Shown piece after piece: positions 47,609 to 64,000 of a stretch of DNA of 64,000 nt (position 1 is the stretch's first letter; each line of letters starts with the position of its first letter). The stretch covers positions 1,440,001 through 1,504,000 of the forward strand of contig CBDEGZ010000003.1 of NCBI GenBank assembly GCA_965238175.1, written 5' to 3'. A program made the translations under genes and the position numbers. Under the pieces are notes generated by a model that ran no database searches, was not told the origin of the DNA, and saw only the letters and a program-made list of their open reading frames with translations. The stretch is from Gammaproteobacteria bacterium. Its GTDB lineage: Bacteria; Pseudomonadota; Gammaproteobacteria; CAJXQU01.

Positions 47609-47714
47609 CTTATAAAAATATGATTATTAAATTATTAAATAGTCTTTTTCTTCAGGAACACCGTTTAATCAATGTAACGCAAATGTAACTTTCAGTGTCA
47701 ATAGTGTGACAAGG

Positions 47715-47743
47715 TTGACATTAAGTAAGACGTTCTGTATAAA
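47715..47743 (+). promoter_or_regulatory. sigma70-type promoter of the STAS-sctV operon
   Basis: TTGACA-N17-TATAAA. Confidence 0.7.
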
Positions 47744-47779
47744 TTGTTGGCGTTGATAACGTATTTTATCCACAGTGGA

Positions 47780-48282
47780 TTACAAGGATTGTAAACACAT
47801 TTTCAAGGAGGAAATGATTGTGATAGACGTATCAGTTAGAGATTGTCCTCATGGCTCAATTCTTGTGTTAGCCGGTGAGTTAAATGCAGTGACTTCGAAT
47901 GACTTATTTAAAGAAGTTATCAAACAAGCACCTAAAACCCCTGCGCATATGTTTTTTGATTTTTCCCAGCTTCGGGTTGTTACGGCTGCAGGTTTACGTA
48001 CCTTATATAAAATTTTCCAAATGACACATACAGATTGTAAGTTAATCTTTTGTGCCACTCATAATACTGCTGGCTTAATGCTCTCTAAAGTCGGCTTTCC
48101 AAATCTGGTTACATTTCACGAAAGTTTATCTATCGCACAATCGGAGATCGAAATTAGTGATTGGAGTCAGAAAGAGTTAGAAATATCATGACTTAAGTAA
48201 AATTGGTGTTAAGAGTACGACCTCAAGGAAGAGGAAAACTCATAGCAAATTAATAGTAATTGAAATTTATCACGGATTGATA
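47780..48282 (+). promoter_or_regulatory. Four GGA-loop hairpins (CsrA/RsmA-type sites) in the STAS and sctV leaders
   Basis: TTACA-AGGAT-TGTAA (47780-47794), TTTC-AAGGAG-GAAA (47801-47814), CCTC-AAGGAA-GAGG (48221-48234), TATCA-CGGAT-TGATA (48268-48282). Confidence 0.65.
47814..48191 (+). CDS. Stand-alone STAS domain protein
   Basis: L.GEL...TS..L, FDFSQL..VTAAGLR.L, L...GF..L. SD AAGGAGG favours a start at 47814 or 47820. Confidence 0.8.
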   Translation: MIVIDVSVRDCPHGSILVLAGELNAVTSNDLFKEVIKQAPKTPAHMFFDFSQLRVVTAAGLRTLYKIFQMTHTDCKLIFCATHNTAGLMLSKVGFPNLVTFHESLSIAQSEIEISDWSQKELEIS

Positions 48283-48283
48283 C

Positions 48284-50353
48284 ATGAATATAAAAAAACT
48301 CACAGGTGTACTGGCGCTTAGAAGCGACTTGCTTTTTGCGCTAGCTTTGATCTCGATTGTCTTTATGATGATCTTGCCGATACCGACGTATATCGTTGAT
48401 ATCGTCATTGGATTAAACTTAGCCACCGCTGTTGTTCTACTAATGGTTGGGGTTTATGTATCAACACCAAGTGCATTTTCAGCTTTTCCCACGATTCTAT
48501 TAATTACTACCTTATTTAGACTTTCACTATCGGTTACAACAACTCGGTTGATCTTAATAGATGCTGATGCCGGAGACATTATTTATGCTTTCGGAGACTT
48601 TGTTGTTGGCGGTAGCATGATAGTGGGTTTAGTTATCTTCCTGATCATTACCATTGTGAGTTTTGTGGTTGTGACAAAAGGTTCAGAACGAATTGCAGAA
48701 GTCAGCGCACGTTTCTCTTTGGATGGAATGCCAGGAAAACAAATGAGTATCGACAGCGATATGCGTGCTGGTTTGATTACTATAGCGAAAGCCAAAGAGC
48801 GCCGCACTGAATTAGAACAAGAAAATCGTTTGTATGGTGCAATGGATGGCGCGATGAAATTTGTCAAAGGTGATGCCATTGCAGGTTTGATCATTATTTT
48901 CGTCAATATTATTGGTGGTCTTTCTGTTGGTATTTTCCAACATGGGCTAGAAGCCTCTGAAGCTTTAGAAATCTATTCTATCTTAACTATTGGAGATGGA
49001 CTTGTTTCACAAATTCCTGCCTTAATAATCGCAGTAACTGCGGGCCTTATTGTAACGCGTGTTACATCAGAGGAAGGTAATAGTCTTGGTGAAGATATTG
49101 GTGGACAAATTAGCGCCTATCCACAAGCTATATTGATAGGCGCAGCATTATTATTTTGTTTTGCCTGGATACCTGGATTTCCAACAATAACGTTTATTTG
49201 CTTATCTGTGCTGTTAGGATTTATGGGGTTAAGAATACAGAATCGATTTACGTCAGAATCTGGAAACACCCTTGATCATGAAGAGCCTATGACACTGCAA
49301 GGAAATGGTGCTGCAACGCCTAAAGAAACTAGTTCAGAAAAAGCTTGGGCAAACACACCAATCATTCTGGAAATATCGTCATCGTTAAAAGGAATGATCA
49401 ATATTCCAAATCTGGATAGTGAAATCGCGCAGGTTAGACAAAACTTACAATCTGAAATTGGGATTGCATATCCAGGCGTTCATTTGCGTTTTAATACTGA
49501 TTTGGATGATGACCATTATTCAATTTCACTTTACGATGTTCCAGTCGTAGTCACTAGTCTTAGAACAGATGCGTTGTTAACAACCACAGATCCTGTGTTG
49601 TTGAAACAAGAAGGAGTTTCTTATTTACCTGAAACTTACGTATTGCCAGGAATGAAGGGGCATTGGGTATTAAAAGAAGATCTTGAGAATCGTACTGAAC
49701 TTAGTATCAATTTGATCTTGATTGAGCAGATTATTTCAAATCAACTTCGTTATGAATTACAGCGTAGCGCTGCCCAATTTATTGGTATCCAAGAAACATA
49801 TCATATGCTTGCACAAGTTGAGCCTGTATATGGTGAGTTAATAAAAGAAGTGTTCAGATACCTGTCAGTTAGTAAAATTGCAGATGTCTTCCGACGTTTG
49901 GTTAATGAAAATGTCTCGATTTCAAATCTCCGAATAATTCTGGAGTCATTGGCTGAGTGGGGACCACAAATTGAAGATATGGAAATTCTGACAGAGAATG
50001 TTCGCATCGATCTTAAAAATCAGATCAGTCATCAATATTCAAAGAATAAGGTGCTTCCCGTTTATCTGTTGGATCCGGAGACTGAAGAAAAATTACGTAA
50101 TAGTATTCGACAGACACCTGAAGGTGTGGGGCTTGCACTTGAGGTTGATGAGTCGAAGACTTTTCTTGGCGCAATTGCGGATTTAATCAATGGTTCAGAT
50201 CGACAGGAAGGTGCCGCTTTAATTACCACTTTAGATTTGCGTTGCCATATTCGAAAATTGACTAAGCTAGAATTTCATGATCTTCCCATTTTGTCATTTC
50301 AGGAACTGACACCACAGGTGAATGTTCAGCCACTCGGAAAAATCAGTTTTTAG
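48284..50353 (+). CDS. sctV: T3SS export gate SctV (LcrD/YscV family)
   Basis: FPT.LL.TTLFRL.L, KGSERIAEVSARFSLDGMPGKQMSIDSD, GAMDGAMKFVKGDA, IGDGLVSQIP. Confidence 0.95.
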   Translation: MNIKKLTGVLALRSDLLFALALISIVFMMILPIPTYIVDIVIGLNLATAVVLLMVGVYVSTPSAFSAFPTILLITTLFRLSLSVTTTRLILIDADAGDIIYAFGDFVVGGSMIVGLVIFLIITIVSFVVVTKGSERIAEVSARFSLDGMPGKQMSIDSDMRAGLITIAKAKERRTELEQENRLYGAMDGAMKFVKGDAIAGLIIIFVNIIGGLSVGIFQHGLEASEALEIYSILTIGDGLVSQIPALIIAVTAGLIVTRVTSEEGNSLGEDIGGQISAYPQAILIGAALLFCFAWIPGFPTITFICLSVLLGFMGLRIQNRFTSESGNTLDHEEPMTLQGNGAATPKETSSEKAWANTPIILEISSSLKGMINIPNLDSEIAQVRQNLQSEIGIAYPGVHLRFNTDLDDDHYSISLYDVPVVVTSLRTDALLTTTDPVLLKQEGVSYLPETYVLPGMKGHWVLKEDLENRTELSINLILIEQIISNQLRYELQRSAAQFIGIQETYHMLAQVEPVYGELIKEVFRYLSVSKIADVFRRLVNENVSISNLRIILESLAEWGPQIEDMEILTENVRIDLKNQISHQYSKNKVLPVYLLDPETEEKLRNSIRQTPEGVGLALEVDESKTFLGAIADLINGSDRQEGAALITTLDLRCHIRKLTKLEFHDLPILSFQELTPQVNVQPLGKISF

Positions 50354-50359
50354 GTGATG

Positions 50360-51688
50360 ATTATGAATCAGTTTAATTACATTACGAAATCTCTGAATCA
50401 AGCCTCGAACCAGTATCAGCCATACCGGCCGAAGGGGAGAGTGATACAGGTTTCTGGAACAGTGATCAAAGCGATCATTCCACAAACTGGAATGGGTGAC
50501 ATCTGTTTGTTGCGTAATCCAGGTGATCCAAAAGGGCTTCGTGCTGAAGTGGTAGGTTTTGAAAATGAAATTGCTTTGTTGATGCCATTGGATGATGTCA
50601 ATGGGGTTTCATCAAGTACGGAAGTAATAACGAGTGGTCTAAACGATACCATTGGTGTTGGTATGGAACTAAAAGGTCGTATTCTAGATGCATTTGGAAA
50701 GCCAATAGATGAGGAAACCAATGGACCATTGAATACTCGAGAACGTTATCCAATTAATGCATCTCCTCCAAATCCTTTGACACGAGCTTCAATCAATAAG
50801 CCAATTGATTTGGGAGTAAAAGTCATCGATGGTTTTTTAGCTTGTGGTGAAGGACAACGAATGGGGATTTTTGCAGCGGCAGGCGTTGGTAAAAGTGTAC
50901 TCCTTGAAATGATGGTTAGAAATGCCAACGTCGATATGGTTGTGGTAGCACTTATTGGCGAGCGTGGACGTGAGGTTCGAGAATTTATCGAAGAGAACAT
51001 AAAAAATGGAGGTATGGAAAATACAATAATGGTCGTTGCCACTGCTGATCGTCCTCCATTGGAACGTGTTAAGGCCGCCCATTCTGCAACTGCTATCGCC
51101 GAATATTATCGTGATCAGGGTCAGCGTGTTTTGTTATTAATGGATTCGGTAACACGCTATGCAAGAGCACAGCGTGAAATTGGACTGGCTGCAGGCGAAA
51201 CACCGACAAGACGTGGTTATCCATCTTCTGTTTTTGCAAAACTGCCTAAGTTATTCGAACGAGCAGGAAATTCGTCTTCAGGATCTATTACTGCACTTTA
51301 TACAGTACTTGTTGAAGCTGATGATATGAATGAGCCTGTCGCTGATGAGGTTCGTTCTTTACTTGACGGACACATCGTTTTATCTCGAGAACTTGCCGCG
51401 AAAAATCACTACCCAGCCGTTGATGTATTAGCGAGCTTGAGTCGTTGTATGCAAAGAATTGCTGATGAAGATCATCTTTACGCTGCTGGTAAAGTCAGGC
51501 GCCTTTTGTCAAAGTTGGATGAAATAAAATTACTATTGAGAGTCGGTGAATACAAAGAAGGAACTGATCAGGAAGCGGATGAAGCAATAAGAAAGAAAGA
51601 GTTAATAGAAGCGTTTTTACAACAAGGAAGAAATGAAAATTTCACATTTGAATCTATGCTGGAACAATTAATGGAGTTAGCATCATGA
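50360..51688 (+). CDS. sctN: T3SS ATPase SctN
   Basis: [56 protein letters not shown]...HYPA.DV..S.SR. Confidence 0.95.
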
Positions 51689-60277: not shown

Positions 60278-61063
60278 CTATTGCAAGATCTTCATCAAGA
60301 GATCAGGTAAAAATTCTATCGATAGGATTTTATTTCTAATAAAGACCAAAATAGTACCGAGGTATAAAGCCAATACAAAAAGTACCACAGTACTTTTAAT
60401 CGGTATAGCGAGCAGGAATACGTTGACCGTTGGGACGAAGCGACCCATTAAACCCATTGAAAGTTCGGTTAGAAACATGATCAAAACAAAGGGAGCTGCC
60501 ATTAATAGTGCAAGGGCTAGAATGTTATCAAAATGTTGTAGAAGAATAGTAGCAGTCTCTATATTTAATTGAGGGTAATAGGAAGTTACTGGCCAGATGA
60601 CATAGGTTTGATAGATGACTGTCAACAGGGCGAGGAAGCCACCCACTGAAAAAAATAATACAGCTATGACTTGGGCAAAAAATGATCCTAAAAGTGAAGT
60701 TTGCCCACCAATAACAGGAGAAAACAATTGGGCAGTCAGAGCACCACGTTGCAAATCAATTATTTCACCCATTGATGCAACAGCCCAAAAAATGATGGCT
60801 GCTACATATCCGATGAGCAATCCCAGAACAGCTTCTTTAACAATCACGAGGATAAACAAAAGTCCATTAACTTCCACGACAGATAATTGTTTTGAAACTA
60901 CCGGTAAAATTATAACTGATAATATGATCGCAACACCGTTTCTGGCCGTTGTAGAAATGAGTTGACGACGAAAAAAAGGTAGTACCATAAAAATTATCAA
61001 AAATCGGGGAAGCGTTACTGTTAAAACTAATAACCAATGCTGTCCTGCAGAAATTATGTCCAT
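60278..61063 (-). CDS. sctT: T3SS export apparatus SctT
   Basis: KE..LG...G......FW.....G..ID.QRG, E...GL.GRF.P..NVF.LA.PIKS. Confidence 0.93.
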   Translation of the reverse strand: MDIISAGQHWLLVLTVTLPRFLIIFMVLPFFRRQLISTTARNGVAIILSVIILPVVSKQLSVVEVNGLLFILVIVKEAVLGLLIGYVAAIIFWAVASMGEIIDLQRGALTAQLFSPVIGGQTSLLGSFFAQVIAVLFFSVGGFLALLTVIYQTYVIWPVTSYYPQLNIETATILLQHFDNILALALLMAAPFVLIMFLTELSMGLMGRFVPTVNVFLLAIPIKSTVVLFVLALYLGTILVFIRNKILSIEFLPDLLMKILQ

Positions 61064-61087
61064 GATGTTTAGGTCGTAACGATATGG

Positions 61088-61363
61088 TTAATGAGTCACT
61101 GTTGAGATCATTACGTACATTTGATCTGTAAACAGCATTAACTCGCGGCCCATCCAGTGAGCCGTAAATAGTATTACGATGATAGCCCCGACTAATTTTA
61201 GACCGAATGCCAGGGTTTGATCTTGTATCTGCGTCAAAGCCTGAAATAAACCAACTAAAAGTCCAATAACAGTCGCAGCTATTGTAACCGGTAGCGAAAG
61301 ATATAAAACCAATAGCAGGCTTTGAGAAGCAAAATGAATAATCTGTTCTTCATTCATATCCAA
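61088..61363 (-). CDS. sctS: T3SS export apparatus SctS
   Basis: L.LVL.LSLP...A..IGLLVGLFQALTQIQDQTL.F..KL. Confidence 0.95.
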   Translation of the reverse strand: MDMNEEQIIHFASQSLLLVLYLSLPVTIAATVIGLLVGLFQALTQIQDQTLAFGLKLVGAIIVILFTAHWMGRELMLFTDQMYVMISTVTH

Positions 61364-61372
61364 TTACCGTGA

Positions 61373-62029
61373 CTAGACATAACTTAAAACCAGGCCATGA
61401 ATTAAACGTGTCCAACCATCAGCCATAACGAATAATAAAATTTTAAAGGGTAAAGAGATTAATATCGGTGACATCATGATCATCCCCATTGCGAGCAGGA
61501 TGTTTGCTATTACTATGTCAATAACGATAAAAGGCAGATAGACGAGAAAACCAATCTGAAACGCAGATTTCAATTCGCTTAGGACGAAAGAAGGCATTAA
61601 TACGAGAATATGTCGGTCATCCATATTGACTGCCTGGTCGTCAGGCCAGAGACGGCTTGTTGTGGAGACAAAAAATTCGCGTTCATCCTTGTCAGAATGG
61701 CGAGCAAGAAAATTTTTGATCGGTTCAAGACCACCGCCAATAGCATCATGGAGTTTAGGGTTTTGTAAATCGTTTATTTCTACATTGTGAGATTTGAACG
61801 CATCTATAGATGCAACTCCGACGGGAGCCATGATAAACAATGACAAGATTATGGCTAACCCATTAATGGCCATTGTGGGTGGAGCTTGTTGTAAGCCGAT
61901 AGCGTTACGCAGGATAAACATAACGACAACGATTTTGAGATATGAACTGACCATGATTGCAAGAAACGGTGCAAGAGCCAGGATAGATAATCCGCCTAAT
62001 AGTAGAAGGGGATTTGGTAATGCATCCAT
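61373..62029 (-). CDS. sctR: T3SS export apparatus SctR
   Basis: SY.KI.VV..ILRNA.GLQQ.PP, P.F.LSEL..AF.IGFL.YLPF..ID, ISLPFK.LLFV..DGW. Confidence 0.96.
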   Translation of the reverse strand: MDALPNPLLLLGGLSILALAPFLAIMVSSYLKIVVVMFILRNAIGLQQAPPTMAINGLAIILSLFIMAPVGVASIDAFKSHNVEINDLQNPKLHDAIGGGLEPIKNFLARHSDKDEREFFVSTTSRLWPDDQAVNMDDRHILVLMPSFVLSELKSAFQIGFLVYLPFIVIDIVIANILLAMGMIMMSPILISLPFKILLFVMADGWTRLIHGLVLSYV

Positions 62030-62032
62030 ACT

Positions 62033-63142
62033 TTATTTACCTAAAAATGATTTTAAACGAACTCCTGTTGTGCCTTCGATGTTAACTATTTCACCAATAC
62101 CTAATAATTGACCATTACTAAAAATATGAACTGACTTATCTATCGGTTTATCTAACGAAAATATATAGCCAGGACTAAGTGCTTTCACTTGAGAAATTGG
62201 TAATGAAACACTTCCAAGTTCGAATTCTAACTTAACGTTAATTTCGTCAATAAAATTCAATTCTTGATCTAGACCCTCTTGATAGCGGCGGTTAGGCTTG
62301 TTTTCTTTATGTTTGTCTTTTCCAGAGCTCTCTTCTGACATTTCAATATCCTTTTTAAATTGATTTGGTATTTTATCAACAATCAAAATATCCTCTTTCT
62401 CGGACGATTCCGAATCTGATTTTTTCAGCTTCAATGTTAAATGGAGACGATCAGAAATCGTCGCCATCACTCTGTTCTCATCTCCAAAAATATCTTGATC
62501 GAAAAGAACCACATCACCAGTTTCCAGGCTGTACAACTCTGAAGATGTCAGTATTGATGAACCAATAAGAAGCTGGGTGTTAAGACTAAGTTGTTCAAAA
62601 TCATTTGTTGATGTGGCCTGATGTTGAAGTAACTGTACTAATTCAGCGGAACTATCGCTATTAACTTTAATTGTTCCTGTCGCAATTTGCCCCGATTCTG
62701 ATGTCAAATGATAGTATAAAACGTAGGGATCAGAGAAAATATAAGGTTTAGCCAATTGTATTTCCTTTTCGACGGCATCAAACAAGATGGGTTTCTCATC
62801 AATAATATTCTCTATCCAGTGAAGAACTGGTGAAAGTAAGACCTTACTCGTAAGTTTTCTTACCACACGAGATCGTGAGCGTAACAAAGGAATGACATCA
62901 AGATTATTTTTCTTAATAAATTCGGGCCATTGATTTATCGTGATGATAAAAGTCGAATTACCAGATTTAAGAATAGTGGCGTACTCAGGTTGAGCGGCAT
63001 TTTCCTCATTTTCTAACGATAAATGTAGTTTATAGTTTTGACCATCAATTTTAATATCCACAGGTGAAGCATAGGCAGAGATTAAATTATTCACCGTCAA
63101 TACAGACTTATTTATACATGGAAACTCGGCTAAAGTATTCAT
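62033..63142 (-). CDS. sctQ: T3SS sorting-platform protein SctQ
   Basis: Two SpoA-like segments (L..L.TGDV.LF; V.L.FE.G...L.......L.PG..F.L......V.I..NGQ..G.GE.V.I....GVR); upstream of sctR. Confidence 0.88.
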   Translation of the reverse strand: MNTLAEFPCINKSVLTVNNLISAYASPVDIKIDGQNYKLHLSLENEENAAQPEYATILKSGNSTFIITINQWPEFIKKNNLDVIPLLRSRSRVVRKLTSKVLLSPVLHWIENIIDEKPILFDAVEKEIQLAKPYIFSDPYVLYYHLTSESGQIATGTIKVNSDSSAELVQLLQHQATSTNDFEQLSLNTQLLIGSSILTSSELYSLETGDVVLFDQDIFGDENRVMATISDRLHLTLKLKKSDSESSEKEDILIVDKIPNQFKKDIEMSEESSGKDKHKENKPNRRYQEGLDQELNFIDEINVKLEFELGSVSLPISQVKALSPGYIFSLDKPIDKSVHIFSNGQLLGIGEIVNIEGTTGVRLKSFLGK

Positions 63143-63144
63143 CT

Positions 63145-63735
63145 TTAAAATGGACCTCCATCAGAACTCGTGTGATCAAGATCGATGTTAGTACGGAAAA
63201 TATCTTCCAGCTGAGCTATTTTTTGATCAGCATTGACATGCACCACACCCATTTCAGATTCGATTATGCAATCATCTTTCTCAATACGATGATCAGCTAC
63301 CACATTAACTTTTCCAGACAAGGATTCTATATCTCTTAATCTAAGTAAGGTTTTATGAGGAATGCTTGGCGAAATTCTAAGTGTGATTTCTCGTGCGTTA
63401 GATAATTCAGATAAACTTTGCTGCACTGATTGAACTAAAAATTCATCAGGCTCGTAGTTTGCAACAATTTTCCTAATATTATTCAAGACAACATCAACAA
63501 TGTCATTCTCTAATTGTTGAACGTAATCAATAGAGTCAGAAACAAGTGATAAAGATTCTGCAAGCGCTTGAGATTTTGCATCCTCTTGTCCTTGAATCAA
63601 TCCTTTTTTATAGGCAATTTTGCAGATTGTTTCTGCGTAGGCCAGGATATCTTCTGCTTTTTGCTGATTCGAATCATTAGTTTGAACAGACTCAAGTATC
63701 TCGTCTACATCATTAGATTTAATTATATTCTTCAT
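63145..63735 (-). CDS. sctL: T3SS stator SctL (YscL/HrpE family)
   Basis: AYKKG...G...A, LE..I...V....RKI, D......CI.ES.MG.V......Q. Confidence 0.82.
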   Translation of the reverse strand: MKNIIKSNDVDEILESVQTNDSNQQKAEDILAYAETICKIAYKKGLIQGQEDAKSQALAESLSLVSDSIDYVQQLENDIVDVVLNNIRKIVANYEPDEFLVQSVQQSLSELSNAREITLRISPSIPHKTLLRLRDIESLSGKVNVVADHRIEKDDCIIESEMGVVHVNADQKIAQLEDIFRTNIDLDHTSSDGGPF

Positions 63736-64000
63736 GGATCACTCCTTGATCAAGGGTCGAGGTATTTTCAGTTTTTACATGGATTGAATTATGCTCAAAA
63801 TGATCCGTTAATAACCTTATTAATTCCACACAATTTGATTTCTTATAAGCAGTCATTTGATTTCGATTAGACAAATAAGAAAGACTATTTTTTCCAAGCT
63901 TTAATATAAGGCGAGTTACCAGTGCCTTGCTTTCATTGTTGAGCGCTCGACCTAAAACAATTAGTCCATTAGCAAAAACTTGTGTCTTTAATGGCTTTTT
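63719..64000 (-). CDS. SctK-like protein, 5'-partial
   Basis: 94-codon open frame from the window edge (KKPLKTQVFANGLIVLGRALNNESKALVTRLILKLG...) overlapping the sctL start; position and the RL.LKL motif fit YscK. Confidence 0.55.
   Translation of the reverse strand, partial: KKPLKTQVFANGLIVLGRALNNESKALVTRLILKLGKNSLSYLSNRNQMTAYKKSNCVELIRLLTDHFEHNSIHVKTENTSTLDQGVIHEEYN

Follow-up and report, generated by a model that had tools for sequence, protein, structure and literature searches.

The secretin pore and the self-cleavage of SctU count as hallmarks of the injectisome, the non-flagellar type III secretion system (T3SS). Rhizobia are the only described case in which a remnant of the secretin SctC is combined with a foreign secretin, and their Rhc-I systems inject effectors into plant cells. 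The sections of PMC3459982 on these systems describe RhcC1 as the N-terminal remnant of the original secretin, and propose that it stayed on to connect with SctD once the Tad-type barrel RhcC2 had been recruited. Rhc clusters are also described, in parts of PMC3574062 and PMC3973906, as lacking hrpP/yscP, and the Rhc-III cluster of Rhizobium etli as carrying rhcC1 only, with no rhcC2. Here we analyze a 64,000-nt stretch of a gammaproteobacterial genome (GenBank assembly GCA_965238175.1, contig CBDEGZ010000003.1, positions 1,440,001 to 1,504,000; hereafter the window), in which two convergent operons encode a non-flagellar T3SS with an SctC of N0 and N1 domains only and an SctU without the NPTH motif.

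The operons read STAS-sctV-N-O-C(N0-N1 only)-D-E-G-I and sctJ-K-L-Q-R-S-T-U-luxR-p245; open reading frames (ORFs), Pfam and NCBIfam gave the same gene content and order as a preliminary description of the window. We hold this system, with moderate confidence, to be a working and distinct branch of the non-flagellar T3SS, for which we propose export of a single substrate class and a borrowed pore. Of these claims, function and distinctness stand on much firmer ground than the lack of a switch or the borrowed pore. It would be a second pore-less, NPTH-less branch beside Rhc, and probably an independent one. By our literature searches the branch is undescribed: we found no report of a T3SS with a truncated secretin outside Rhc, of an SctU without NPTH or of a link between DUF4124 and type III secretion, and the supplements of PMC3459982 and PMC3574062 might already list such loci. 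Detection rules such as those given in part of PMC3459982 demand a secretin, and clusters like this one can therefore be missed or called incomplete.

Genome, loci and methods

The system runs on past the window end into locus L001, whose position x equals window position x + 63000. The host genome (G000; 3.35 Mb, three contigs, 97.7% complete) was searched whole. Contig C1 of this assembly (10,967 bases) has 55.8% G+C versus 40.4% for the chromosome, and may be a foreign element or contamination. The sister locus L008 was used for the comparison of gene order and for the ratio of nonsynonymous to synonymous substitutions (dN/dS), which was calculated by the Nei-Gojobori method for the window genes against L008. 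Related loci were L008-L018 and L053-L058, and L030, L033, L039 and L040 served as reference clusters. Domains were called with Pfam and NCBIfam models on the window ORFs, extended past the window end.

Conservation of the cluster

The core set sctV, N, R, S, T, U, J, Q, D, L, K and O is clustered without flagellum-specific genes, and is the core set required of a non-flagellar T3SS. The inner-membrane export machine (SctRSTUV), the ATPase complex (SctN/L/O), the sorting platform (SctK/Q) and the rings (SctD/J) are retained, as are an SctI-type rod protein, the co-chaperones SctE and SctG, and a divergent subunit for the SctF slot.

All 19 T3SS genes are intact, with dN/dS from 0.065 to 0.32 at dS 0.63-1.26 against L008. 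The preliminary description had argued against decay and proposed this very calculation, which bears it out; the dS values of 0.6-1.3 are near saturation for a simple Nei-Gojobori estimate, and to that extent count against our reading. Its proposal to look for the same gene order elsewhere was likewise followed: L008 carries the same genes in the same order, with proteins 59-90% identical to those of the window. Scanning species-representative genomes brought up 15 loci. Eleven of them (L008-L018) have window-like T3SS genes and come from metagenome-assembled genomes labeled Gammaproteobacteria, Pseudomonadota, Thiotrichales, Competibacteraceae and Arenicella; the remaining four, from Alphaproteobacteria, were matched in conserved export-gate genes only. 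The lineage clade comprises at least 13 loci from uncultured Gammaproteobacteria, and within the genus of the host two of seven genomes have the T3SS. Because distant relatives share the unusual traits (NPTH absent in 13/13, short SctC in 10 loci), these traits are old and maintained.

An insertion sequence lies between the two operons. The chromosome carries at least 57 full-length copies of it, 99.7-100% identical, and numerous end fragments of 135 bp, which is a strong expansion for a genome of 3.35 Mb. It is absent from L008, where the stop codons of the flanking terminal genes stand 10 bases apart; the insertion therefore seems to have cost no gene, and we rejected the idea that it had removed any. 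About 820 unique bases (window 57012-57831) separate the insertion sequence from p245. They hold broken minus-strand frames only (e.g., 57118-57387) and have no counterpart in L008; they may be a gene remnant carried in or cut by the insertion. One could see in all this a recently disabled remnant, i.e., a system that has lost its pore and NPTH, taken up an insertion sequence and had its sctF displaced in a reducing genome. The number of insertion-sequence copies, one of them inside the cluster, the presence of the T3SS in so few genomes of the genus, and an sctF out of its slot all fit such a history. However, 19 intact genes with low dN/dS, traits shared with distant relatives, and an insertion in the non-coding gap between convergent stop codons do not, and we regard recent disablement as very improbable.

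Reduced SctC

SctC covers positions 2-143 of the 463-position model TIGR02516. It has no N3 and no secretin domain, and the secretin without a barrel noted in the preliminary description is thus borne out by a protein of 208 amino acids (aa). It consists of a signal peptide, N0, N1 (one Secretin_N) and a beta-hairpin tail. The tail reads YRWKDKSG (motif YRWxDxxG; Y180, W182 and G187 do not vary among 18 sequences), matches Pfam DUF4124 weakly, and is confidently predicted as a hairpin. DUF4124 is found in periplasmic proteins. An AlphaFold2 model built on an alignment of 18 relatives has a predicted local distance difference test score (pLDDT) of 87.2. In Foldseek it matches the solved N0-N1 parts of MxiD, InvG and EscC with template modeling (TM) scores of 0.82-0.91 (target-normalized) and root-mean-square deviations (rmsd) of 1.6-2.4 A; the best matches include 6rwk_0 (TM 0.91, rmsd 1.6 A). 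Going by this model, the matched N0-N1 module corresponds to the ring that contacts SctD.

Short forms of SctC are not confined to the window. An exhaustive search with the short SctC, made without a profile, gave 744 representatives at E <= 1e-3, and among the best 150 of these, 59 are 300 aa or shorter. In a FastTree phylogeny of the N0-N1 part the window sequence falls inside a clade of 24 rows, all short (Shimodaira-Hasegawa-like support 96), and NolW, the rhizobial counterpart, stands outside this clade and has no YRWxDxxG tail. When 400 genomes sampled evenly across the class were searched with a profile built from short SctC forms, seven, G000 included, had short frames (207-258 aa) and three had long ones. 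Next to sctD, a short SctC of 199-259 aa is found in L008, L016, L018 and L053-L058, so that 10 lineage loci, window included, have it. The tail of the YRWxDxxG type was seen in seven of the 10 (window, L016, L018, L053-L056); the pattern was not found in L057 and L058, which have the gene order E-D-C, and the L008 frame was not looked at. The Arenicella member of the lineage (L038) keeps a full T3SS-type SctC 11 kb from its cluster (TIGR02516, 366 bits, above cut-off). Therefore, SctC was truncated within the lineage, at a time when NPTH had already been lost. This full-length SctC (L038:10652-12691) also shows an unusual C-terminal TonB-C-like fusion at residues about 597-667.

The host genome holds six frames with a secretin domain (PF00263), namely PilQ, two GspD, two MSHA-type proteins and a 289-aa mini-secretin, and none of the six is of T3SS type or near the cluster. 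Within the genus, secretin matches number 6 and 7 in the genomes with the T3SS, and 4, 6, 6, 6 and 8 in those without it, where the count of 8 includes one frame matched in two pieces. Since these secretins are of non-T3SS type and do not track the T3SS within the genus, there is no dedicated barrel here. In four of the five related genomes that were searched, the T3SS contig carries no secretin, as judged by contig numbers. The mini-secretin (G000:C3:1800058-1800927) has a signal peptide, one N-domain and a weak secretin domain (38 bits). As the missing half of SctC it was rejected: it adjoins purB and exbBD-tonB and occurs in 7/7 genomes of the genus, versus 2/7 for the T3SS. It may still serve as a shared partner. 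A 535-aa secretin was also rejected as partner, as it sits in an MSHA-type operon (PilM/N/O-secretin-AAA_22-TPR). The outer-membrane route may be a shared housekeeping secretin or an unrecognized outer-membrane partner, or export may stop in the periplasm.

The last of these routes deserves separate consideration. Here the machine would end in the periplasm and deliver its filament and a collagen-repeat protein there or to the inner face of the outer membrane, for envelope building or as a periplasmic appendage. The genome has no T3SS-type barrel and no secretin specific to T3SS-bearing genomes; selection has long kept a short SctC in many genomes whose clusters, as far as read, hold no barrel gene; its tail resembles DUF4124; and neither a gatekeeper nor an SseC-type translocon was found. 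All of this agrees with a periplasmic end. However, a machine that still spans the periplasm towards the outer membrane would be expected to keep what is kept here, namely the N0-N1 ring, the rod protein, the needle-type subunit and the chaperones of this subunit, and the Rhc remnant works with a foreign secretin, as stated in part of PMC3459982. We therefore consider a periplasmic end quite unlikely, and a borrowed pore remains our preferred reading.

SctU, ruler, gatekeeper and translocon

SctU aligns end to end with its family and carries DYAN at the NPTH position, which agrees with the motif loss reported in the preliminary description. Its relatives are one at 72%, four at 38-40% and then others at about 30%; an alignment of 15 of the 63 matches held nine without NPTH and six with it. 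The motif is absent from 13/13 SctU of the lineage (12 loci and one further genome) and present in seven of eight non-lineage SctU/FlhB rows aligned, i.e., those of Yersinia, Nitratidesulfovibrio vulgaris, Ralstonia, Shigella, the SPI-2-type system of Pantoea, an atypical Bradyrhizobium plasmid system, and the FlhB of the host itself. RhcU also lacks NPTH in both Rhc-I loci aligned (Bradyrhizobium guangzhouense and Mesorhizobium sp. AR10), and the Rhc-III SctU of Rhizobium phaseoli is only 265 aa long. We found no paper that states a loss of NPTH in RhcU, and neither PMC3574062 nor PMC3973906 uses the term in its main text.

A second, NPTH-bearing SctU was rejected. Genome-wide, Bac_export_2 matches over cut-off are FlhB, the window SctU and an 87-aa FlhB-C-like protein, and the last starts after the cleavage site. 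The preliminary description had allowed for missing parts past the window edge or elsewhere in the genome: sctJ is indeed there at full length, but neither a second SctU nor a T3SS-type secretin was found. The lack of a ruler gene 3' of sctO, which it had also pointed out, follows from the overlap of sctO with the next gene, the sctC fragment, by 4 bases. The ruler model PF02120 has no match near the cluster, and its two matches genome-wide both lie near 2.72 Mb, about 1.2 Mb away. One of these genes is directly upstream of the FlhB-C-like gene: in G000:C3:2727000-2727517 the 87-aa protein comes after a Flg_hook (FliK-type) protein, and the second Flg_hook gene is at 2717609. The gatekeeper (PF07201) and the SseC-type translocon (PF04888) gave no match genome-wide at E <= 1, in accordance with the preliminary description; each search used one Pfam model, and both protein types are poorly conserved. 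Likewise, the Ysc ruler, YopN/TyeA gatekeeper and LcrV/YopB/YopD tip and translocon genes are not in the cluster; LcrV-type tip models were not searched.

Two related loci have unusual proteins in this context. In L015 (11353-12786) a 477-aa protein encoded directly 3' of sctU has a second SctU C-terminal domain (Bac_export_2, positions 263-332, E 6e-12). In L018 (5310-7001) a 563-aa protein directly upstream of sctQ combines a long Pro-Thr repeat with a TGL (protein-glutamine gamma-glutamyltransferase) domain. It occupies the place of the Ysc ruler, and may be a substrate or a ruler analogue.

Cleavage of SpaS is reported, in part of PMC4620466, to be required for the switching-competent conformation. 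The preliminary description had suggested a system that neither injects nor switches. A cluster-linked ruler, a gatekeeper and an SseC-type translocon were not found, which fits this idea, but the Rhc precedent shows that such traits alone are insufficient. Both fetched Rhc-I clusters contain an HrpF/NolX-type translocon gene by annotation although they lack NPTH, so that the loss of NPTH and SctP is no proof that only one class of substrates is exported.

Candidate SctF outside its slot

The preliminary description had also called the system possibly needle-less. It was right that no gene stands between sctE and sctG, which overlap by 11 bases, but loss of the needle gene is not supported: a 74-aa gene of the sctF slot, oB74, lies past the window end, although it is not a canonical sctF. 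Orthologues of oB74 at 44-45% identity (E 2e-12 and 3e-14) stand exactly between sctE and sctG in L054 and L055, and in L018, L053 and L056 the slot holds a different small ORF of 67-72 aa. Hence the slot is occupied in 5/5 loci outside the genus that have both sctE and sctG (L018, L053-L056). We read this as an sctF that has been kept, is divergent and pilin-like, and appears to have moved out of its slot in this genus. For the assignment to SctF the argument from position is strong and that from sequence weak.

Several comparisons by sequence and structure point in the same direction. A profile of seven slot proteins has as its best match in the PDB, among 177,635 sequences, the 43-residue chain 7y6c_F (E 0.011, 18.9 bits, a weak match), which by sequence is the C-terminal helix of an SsaG/EscF-type needle protein. 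In the Atlas, oB74 lies near HrpA_pilin clusters (0.92 and 0.91, with 190 and 184 shared features), as a lead only, since its recognition value of 1830 is below the mark of 2300. The slot ORF of L018 has a sub-threshold match to HrpA_pilin (E 0.018). With an ad hoc hidden Markov model of four needle proteins and the L018 slot ORF, oB74 is the top match genome-wide (E 0.012). A predicted complex of SctE, SctG and oB74 scored 0.38 (runs 0.35, 0.88 and 0.38) versus 0.02 for the best of three controls, which gives weak support. At least 6% of contacts are common to the runs, and the partners have a pLDDT of 51 or more. The mark for this score is reached by 58/80 solved complexes and 2/110 mismatched pairs; at 0.60 or under it is reached by only seven of the 80 solved complexes and by both mismatches.

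Other results weigh against taking oB74 for SctF. Pfam and NCBIfam needle models, including PF09392 (E <= 1 genome-wide), do not match it, and hhalign to four canonical needles gives probabilities of 8.9% and 3.7%; for oB74 and its L008 orthologue against the L018 slot ORF the value is 28%. The assignment is weak by sequence, with a marginal match in the PDB (E 0.011), and the dN/dS of oB74 (0.47) is the highest of the set. Complexes of E, F and G have already been solved, and the pass of the complex prediction may reflect these remembered structures.

In L001 the gene belongs to a module of o81, oA73, oB74, a collagen-repeat gene and a second o81, which runs divergently from sctJ. The order o81-oB74-collagen recurs in L008, where the collagen repeats end the contig. 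Within the genus, o81 and oB74 occur in exactly the 2/7 genomes that have the T3SS, and the N-terminal SctC domain in the same two. The collagen-repeat protein consists almost wholly of Gly-X-Y repeats and has no evident signal peptide; together with o81 it may be an export substrate. As a second needle-like gene oA73 was rejected: it is 16% identical to oB74 with nothing by BLASTP, and has no orthologue in L008-L018, L037 or L038.

Organization of the locus

The coordinates of all features are collected in Table 1. To the left the cluster is bordered by housekeeping genes (aminotransferase, homoserine dehydrogenase and threonine synthase). To the right of the module follows a separate flagellar fliL-flhA block, 7-17 kb further on.

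Table 1. Features of the two operons and their continuation; positions refer to the window unless preceded by L001 or C3.
Feature	Position	Strand	Evidence and remarks
STAS-domain protein, anti-sigma-antagonist type	47775-48191	+	Pfam STAS, E 1.4e-8; first gene of sctV operon
sctV, export gate	48284-50353	+	FHIPEP, 705 bits, E 1e-211
sctN, ATPase	50354-51688	+	ATP-synt_ab and T3SS_ATPase_C; dN/dS 0.07
sctO, stalk	51685-52206	+	Pfam YscO, E 5e-8
sctC fragment, 208 aa	52203-52829	+	Pfam T3S_SPI-1_N0 and Secretin_N; dN/dS 0.11
sctD, inner-membrane ring	52893-54332	+	Yop-YscD_cpl, two YscD BON-like domains, Y4YQ_C
sctE, needle co-chaperone	54310-54564	+	PF08988, E 5e-9; dN/dS 0.23
sctG-like tetratricopeptide repeat (TPR) co-chaperone	54554-54979	+	TPR_19; CdsG family E 7.6e-10, under cut-off
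sctI-like protein, 207 aa	55005-55628	+	C-terminal SctI pattern; dN/dS 0.32
Insertion sequence, 1226 bp	55786-57011	+	Transposase 55914-56948, HTH_29 and rve_3; not part of machine
p245, signal peptide and HExxH	57832-58569	-	Last gene of sctJ-U operon; dN/dS 0.10
LuxR/GerE-type regulator, atypical receiver domain	58576-59214	-	GerE E 3e-18; Response_reg 25.7 bits, under cut-off
sctU without NPTH	59211-60260	-	Bac_export_2, 244 bits; dN/dS 0.15
sctT	60278-61063	-	Pfam Bac_export_1
sctS	61088-61363	-	Pfam Bac_export_3
sctR	61373-62029	-	Pfam FliP
sctQ	62033-63142	-	Pfam FliMN_C
sctL	63145-63735	-	Pfam T3SS_SCTL
sctK, 3' part in window	63719-64000	-	Whole gene L001:719-1447, 242 aa, YscK E 3e-16
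sctJ, 294 aa	L001:1434-2318	-	YscJ_FliF, E 6e-30; just past window end
o81, small acidic protein	L001:2621-2866	+	
oA73	L001:3097-3318	+	
oB74, displaced sctF-slot gene, 74 aa	L001:4902-5126	+	3.9 kb past window end
Collagen-repeat protein, 987 aa	L001:5326-8289 (C3:1508326-1511289)	+	Collagen, E 8.5e-96
o81 paralogue	L001:8628-8873	+	

In the plus-strand operon, the STAS gene has a dN/dS of 0.22, and a STAS gene also stands 5' of sctV in L008, L015, L018 and L053. SctV is one of two FHIPEP genes genome-wide, and its closest solved relative is the LcrD-type 7alw (682 bits, versus 479 for SsaV and 358 for FlhA). SctD scores 109.9 bits with TIGR02500, over the cut-off of 86 bits, and SctE 43.7 bits with TIGR02501, where the cut-off is 38.25. 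The sctG-like gene occupies the G position and has orthologues in L008, L018 and L053-L056. The 207-aa protein that ends the operon matches no Pfam or NCBIfam family, and a homologue search with it returned the sister orthologue only. Its last 35 residues fit the pattern of YscI, MxiI, HrpB2 and NolB; homologues lie directly 5' of sctJ in L016, L018, L053 and L056 and 0.6-0.7 kb away in L054 and L055, and the equivalent position in N. vulgaris holds a 271-aa protein. On this pattern and position we call it a putative inner-rod protein of the SctI type with a long N-terminal extension.

In the minus-strand operon, sctT, S, R, Q and L have dN/dS values of 0.065-0.16. Homologues of the LuxR-type regulator adjoin T3SS genes in L012, L013, L015, L038 and L054. 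The gene after luxR, p245, had been called a peptidase in the preliminary description. Its HExxH motif and sub-threshold look-alikes are the sole basis for this name: no Pfam or NCBIfam family matches it, and in the Atlas it resembles unnamed Pseudomonadota clusters at 0.95 and metallopeptidase clusters at 0.86-0.88 only. Its L008 counterpart is 83% identical.

Phylogenetic position

In a concatenated tree of SctV/N/U/R/S/T (quick LG+C20 analysis) the 12 rows of the window and L008-L018 form one clade with a Shimodaira-Hasegawa-like approximate likelihood ratio test (SH-aLRT) support of 99. This tree held one Rhc row only. A second tree (quick LG+G4 analysis) included four Rhc references, and nine of the same rows again form one clade with SH-aLRT 99. 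The distinct lineage proposed in the preliminary description thus appears in both trees, and it is matched by the 13/13 SctU without NPTH and by the all-short SctC clade of 24. In the LG+G4 tree the lineage lies inside a group marked by a star with Ysc, Desulfovibrio, Mxi-Spa and SPI-2-type systems, and outside that group the four Rhc rows make up a starred clade of their own (99). SctN shares 58% identity with YscN, 57.7% with its N. vulgaris plasmid counterpart, about 50% with Ralstonia HrcN (Hrp2) and Rhc-I, and 42% with Shigella SpaL. On the best tree, the lineage would be closest to the Ysc and Desulfovibrionales systems.

Three points tell against this placement. Support is 75, without a star, for the branch that unites the lineage with Yersinia, N. 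vulgaris and the atypical plasmid system of Bradyrhizobium; a clade of the lineage with Rhc is not rejected by the approximately unbiased (AU) test (p 0.10), at a log likelihood 23 lower; and the trees are without Chlamydiales, Myxococcales and Hrp1 references, so that the placement is not firm.

Proposed function and significance

We propose that the machine builds a rod and, from the SctF-slot protein, a thin filament. The o81 protein and the collagen-repeat protein would be exported without an early-to-late substrate switch, possibly forming a surface fiber. The N0-N1 ring may serve as an adaptor to an outer-membrane passage encoded outside the cluster, most likely a housekeeping secretin, by analogy with RhcC1 and the Tad-derived RhcC2. 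The STAS protein, as a partner-switch protein, and the LuxR-type regulator would act as controllers. Two points count against this proposal as a whole: an outer-membrane partner was not found, nor a secretin specific to T3SS-bearing genomes, and the lack of a switch is concluded from absences only.

A more specific version can be put forward tentatively, as one we consider possible but ourselves doubt. It posits a family of pore-less T3SS in about 1-2% of sampled gammaproteobacterial species, in which an N0-N1 ring with a DUF4124-type hairpin docks on the secretin of the type II secretion system or type IV pilus, or else ends in the periplasm, and which exports one unswitched class made up of a pilin-like SctF and repeat proteins.

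The lineage poses the question of what carries filament and substrates over the outer membrane, and would be a natural experiment on the need for NPTH cleavage, ruler and gatekeeper. A second, probably independent case beside the rhizobia would establish the N0-N1 ring as a portable adaptor. Should the best tree hold, the syndrome is independent of Rhc, and modular pore swapping would be a recurrent route in T3SS evolution. In addition, a host genome with so many insertion-sequence copies may be host-associated, and the system may then matter in an undescribed symbiosis or infection.

Comparison with known systems

The system resembles Rhc in several respects. In both, SctC is cut down to an N-terminal piece that stands among the core genes, an SctP-type ruler is lacking, SctU is without NPTH (Rhc-I, 2/2) or truncated (Rhc-III), no YopN/HrpJ-type gatekeeper is listed, and the protein in the SctI position (NolB in Rhc) is longer. 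Subgroup III of Rhizobium etli/phaseoli, with rhcC1 only, comes closest. The preliminary description had taken its four departures from the canonical injectisome together as a mark of this cluster; all are present, but the barrel-less SctC, the missing SctP and the NPTH-less SctU are shared with Rhc.

These likenesses could mean that the lineage is a deep, non-rhizobial offshoot of Rhc, which inherited its traits from the common ancestor and injects a eukaryotic host through a pilus. The same syndrome of RhcC1 without barrel and clusters without hrpP/yscP, as described in parts of PMC3574062, PMC3973906 and PMC3459982, supports this view, as do RhcU, the Rhc-III precedent of R. etli with rhcC1 and no rhcC2 (parts of PMC3973906 and PMC3574062), and the result of the AU test. 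Moreover, SctD has Y4YQ_C, a domain named after rhizobial SctD, and the look-alikes of oB74 are Hrp pilins. Against it, the best trees group the lineage with Ysc, Desulfovibrio and SPI systems and set it apart from the four Rhc references, and SctN is closer to Ysc than to Rhc. The lineage SctC has a DUF4124-like tail and belongs to another N0-N1 clade than NolW, and the full SctC of the Arenicella member places the truncation inside the lineage. The lineage has YscK-, YscE-, YscG- and YscO-type genes and the Ysc-like order C-D-E-F-G-I-J. Its clusters show no RhcC2 barrel of the Tad type, no CpaD-like lipoprotein, no NopX/HrpF-type translocon (fetched loci, by eye) and no SseC-type translocon. 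Its hosts are gammaproteobacterial, and the regulators seen are of the STAS and LuxR types rather than TtsI, for which, as for the tts-box, no search was made. An origin within Rhc is therefore unlikely in our view, and a separate, working branch is the better account.

The core proteins are most similar to those of the Ysc and Desulfovibrionales systems (SctN 58%, SctV best matched by the LcrD type), which share the gene order C-D-E-(F)-G-I-J-K-L and Q-R-S-T-U, and YscK, YscE, YscG-like and YscO proteins. The N. vulgaris cluster further shares a STAS gene and a long protein in the SctI position (271 aa). On the N. vulgaris plasmid (L030), STAS and 'ATP-binding protein' genes lie directly 3' of sctR, and regulators of the STAS type, possibly partner switches, thus turn up in clusters of more than one T3SS family. 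However, the Ysc and N. vulgaris systems have a full SctC (607-720 aa), NPTH and a needle-length ruler, and also SctW with TyeA/SycN, YscX/Y, translocon and tip proteins and a pilotin, none of which was found here. The paper on the Vibrio 'T3SS3' concerns, in the part relevant here, a SPI-2-like system (PMC9967039). Finally, the Myxococcales T3SS resembles our system in that it is non-flagellar and without a secretin. In the section of PMC3459982 that covers it, the secretin is described as wholly absent, whereas the lineage described here, compared in trees without Myxococcales, has kept N0-N1.

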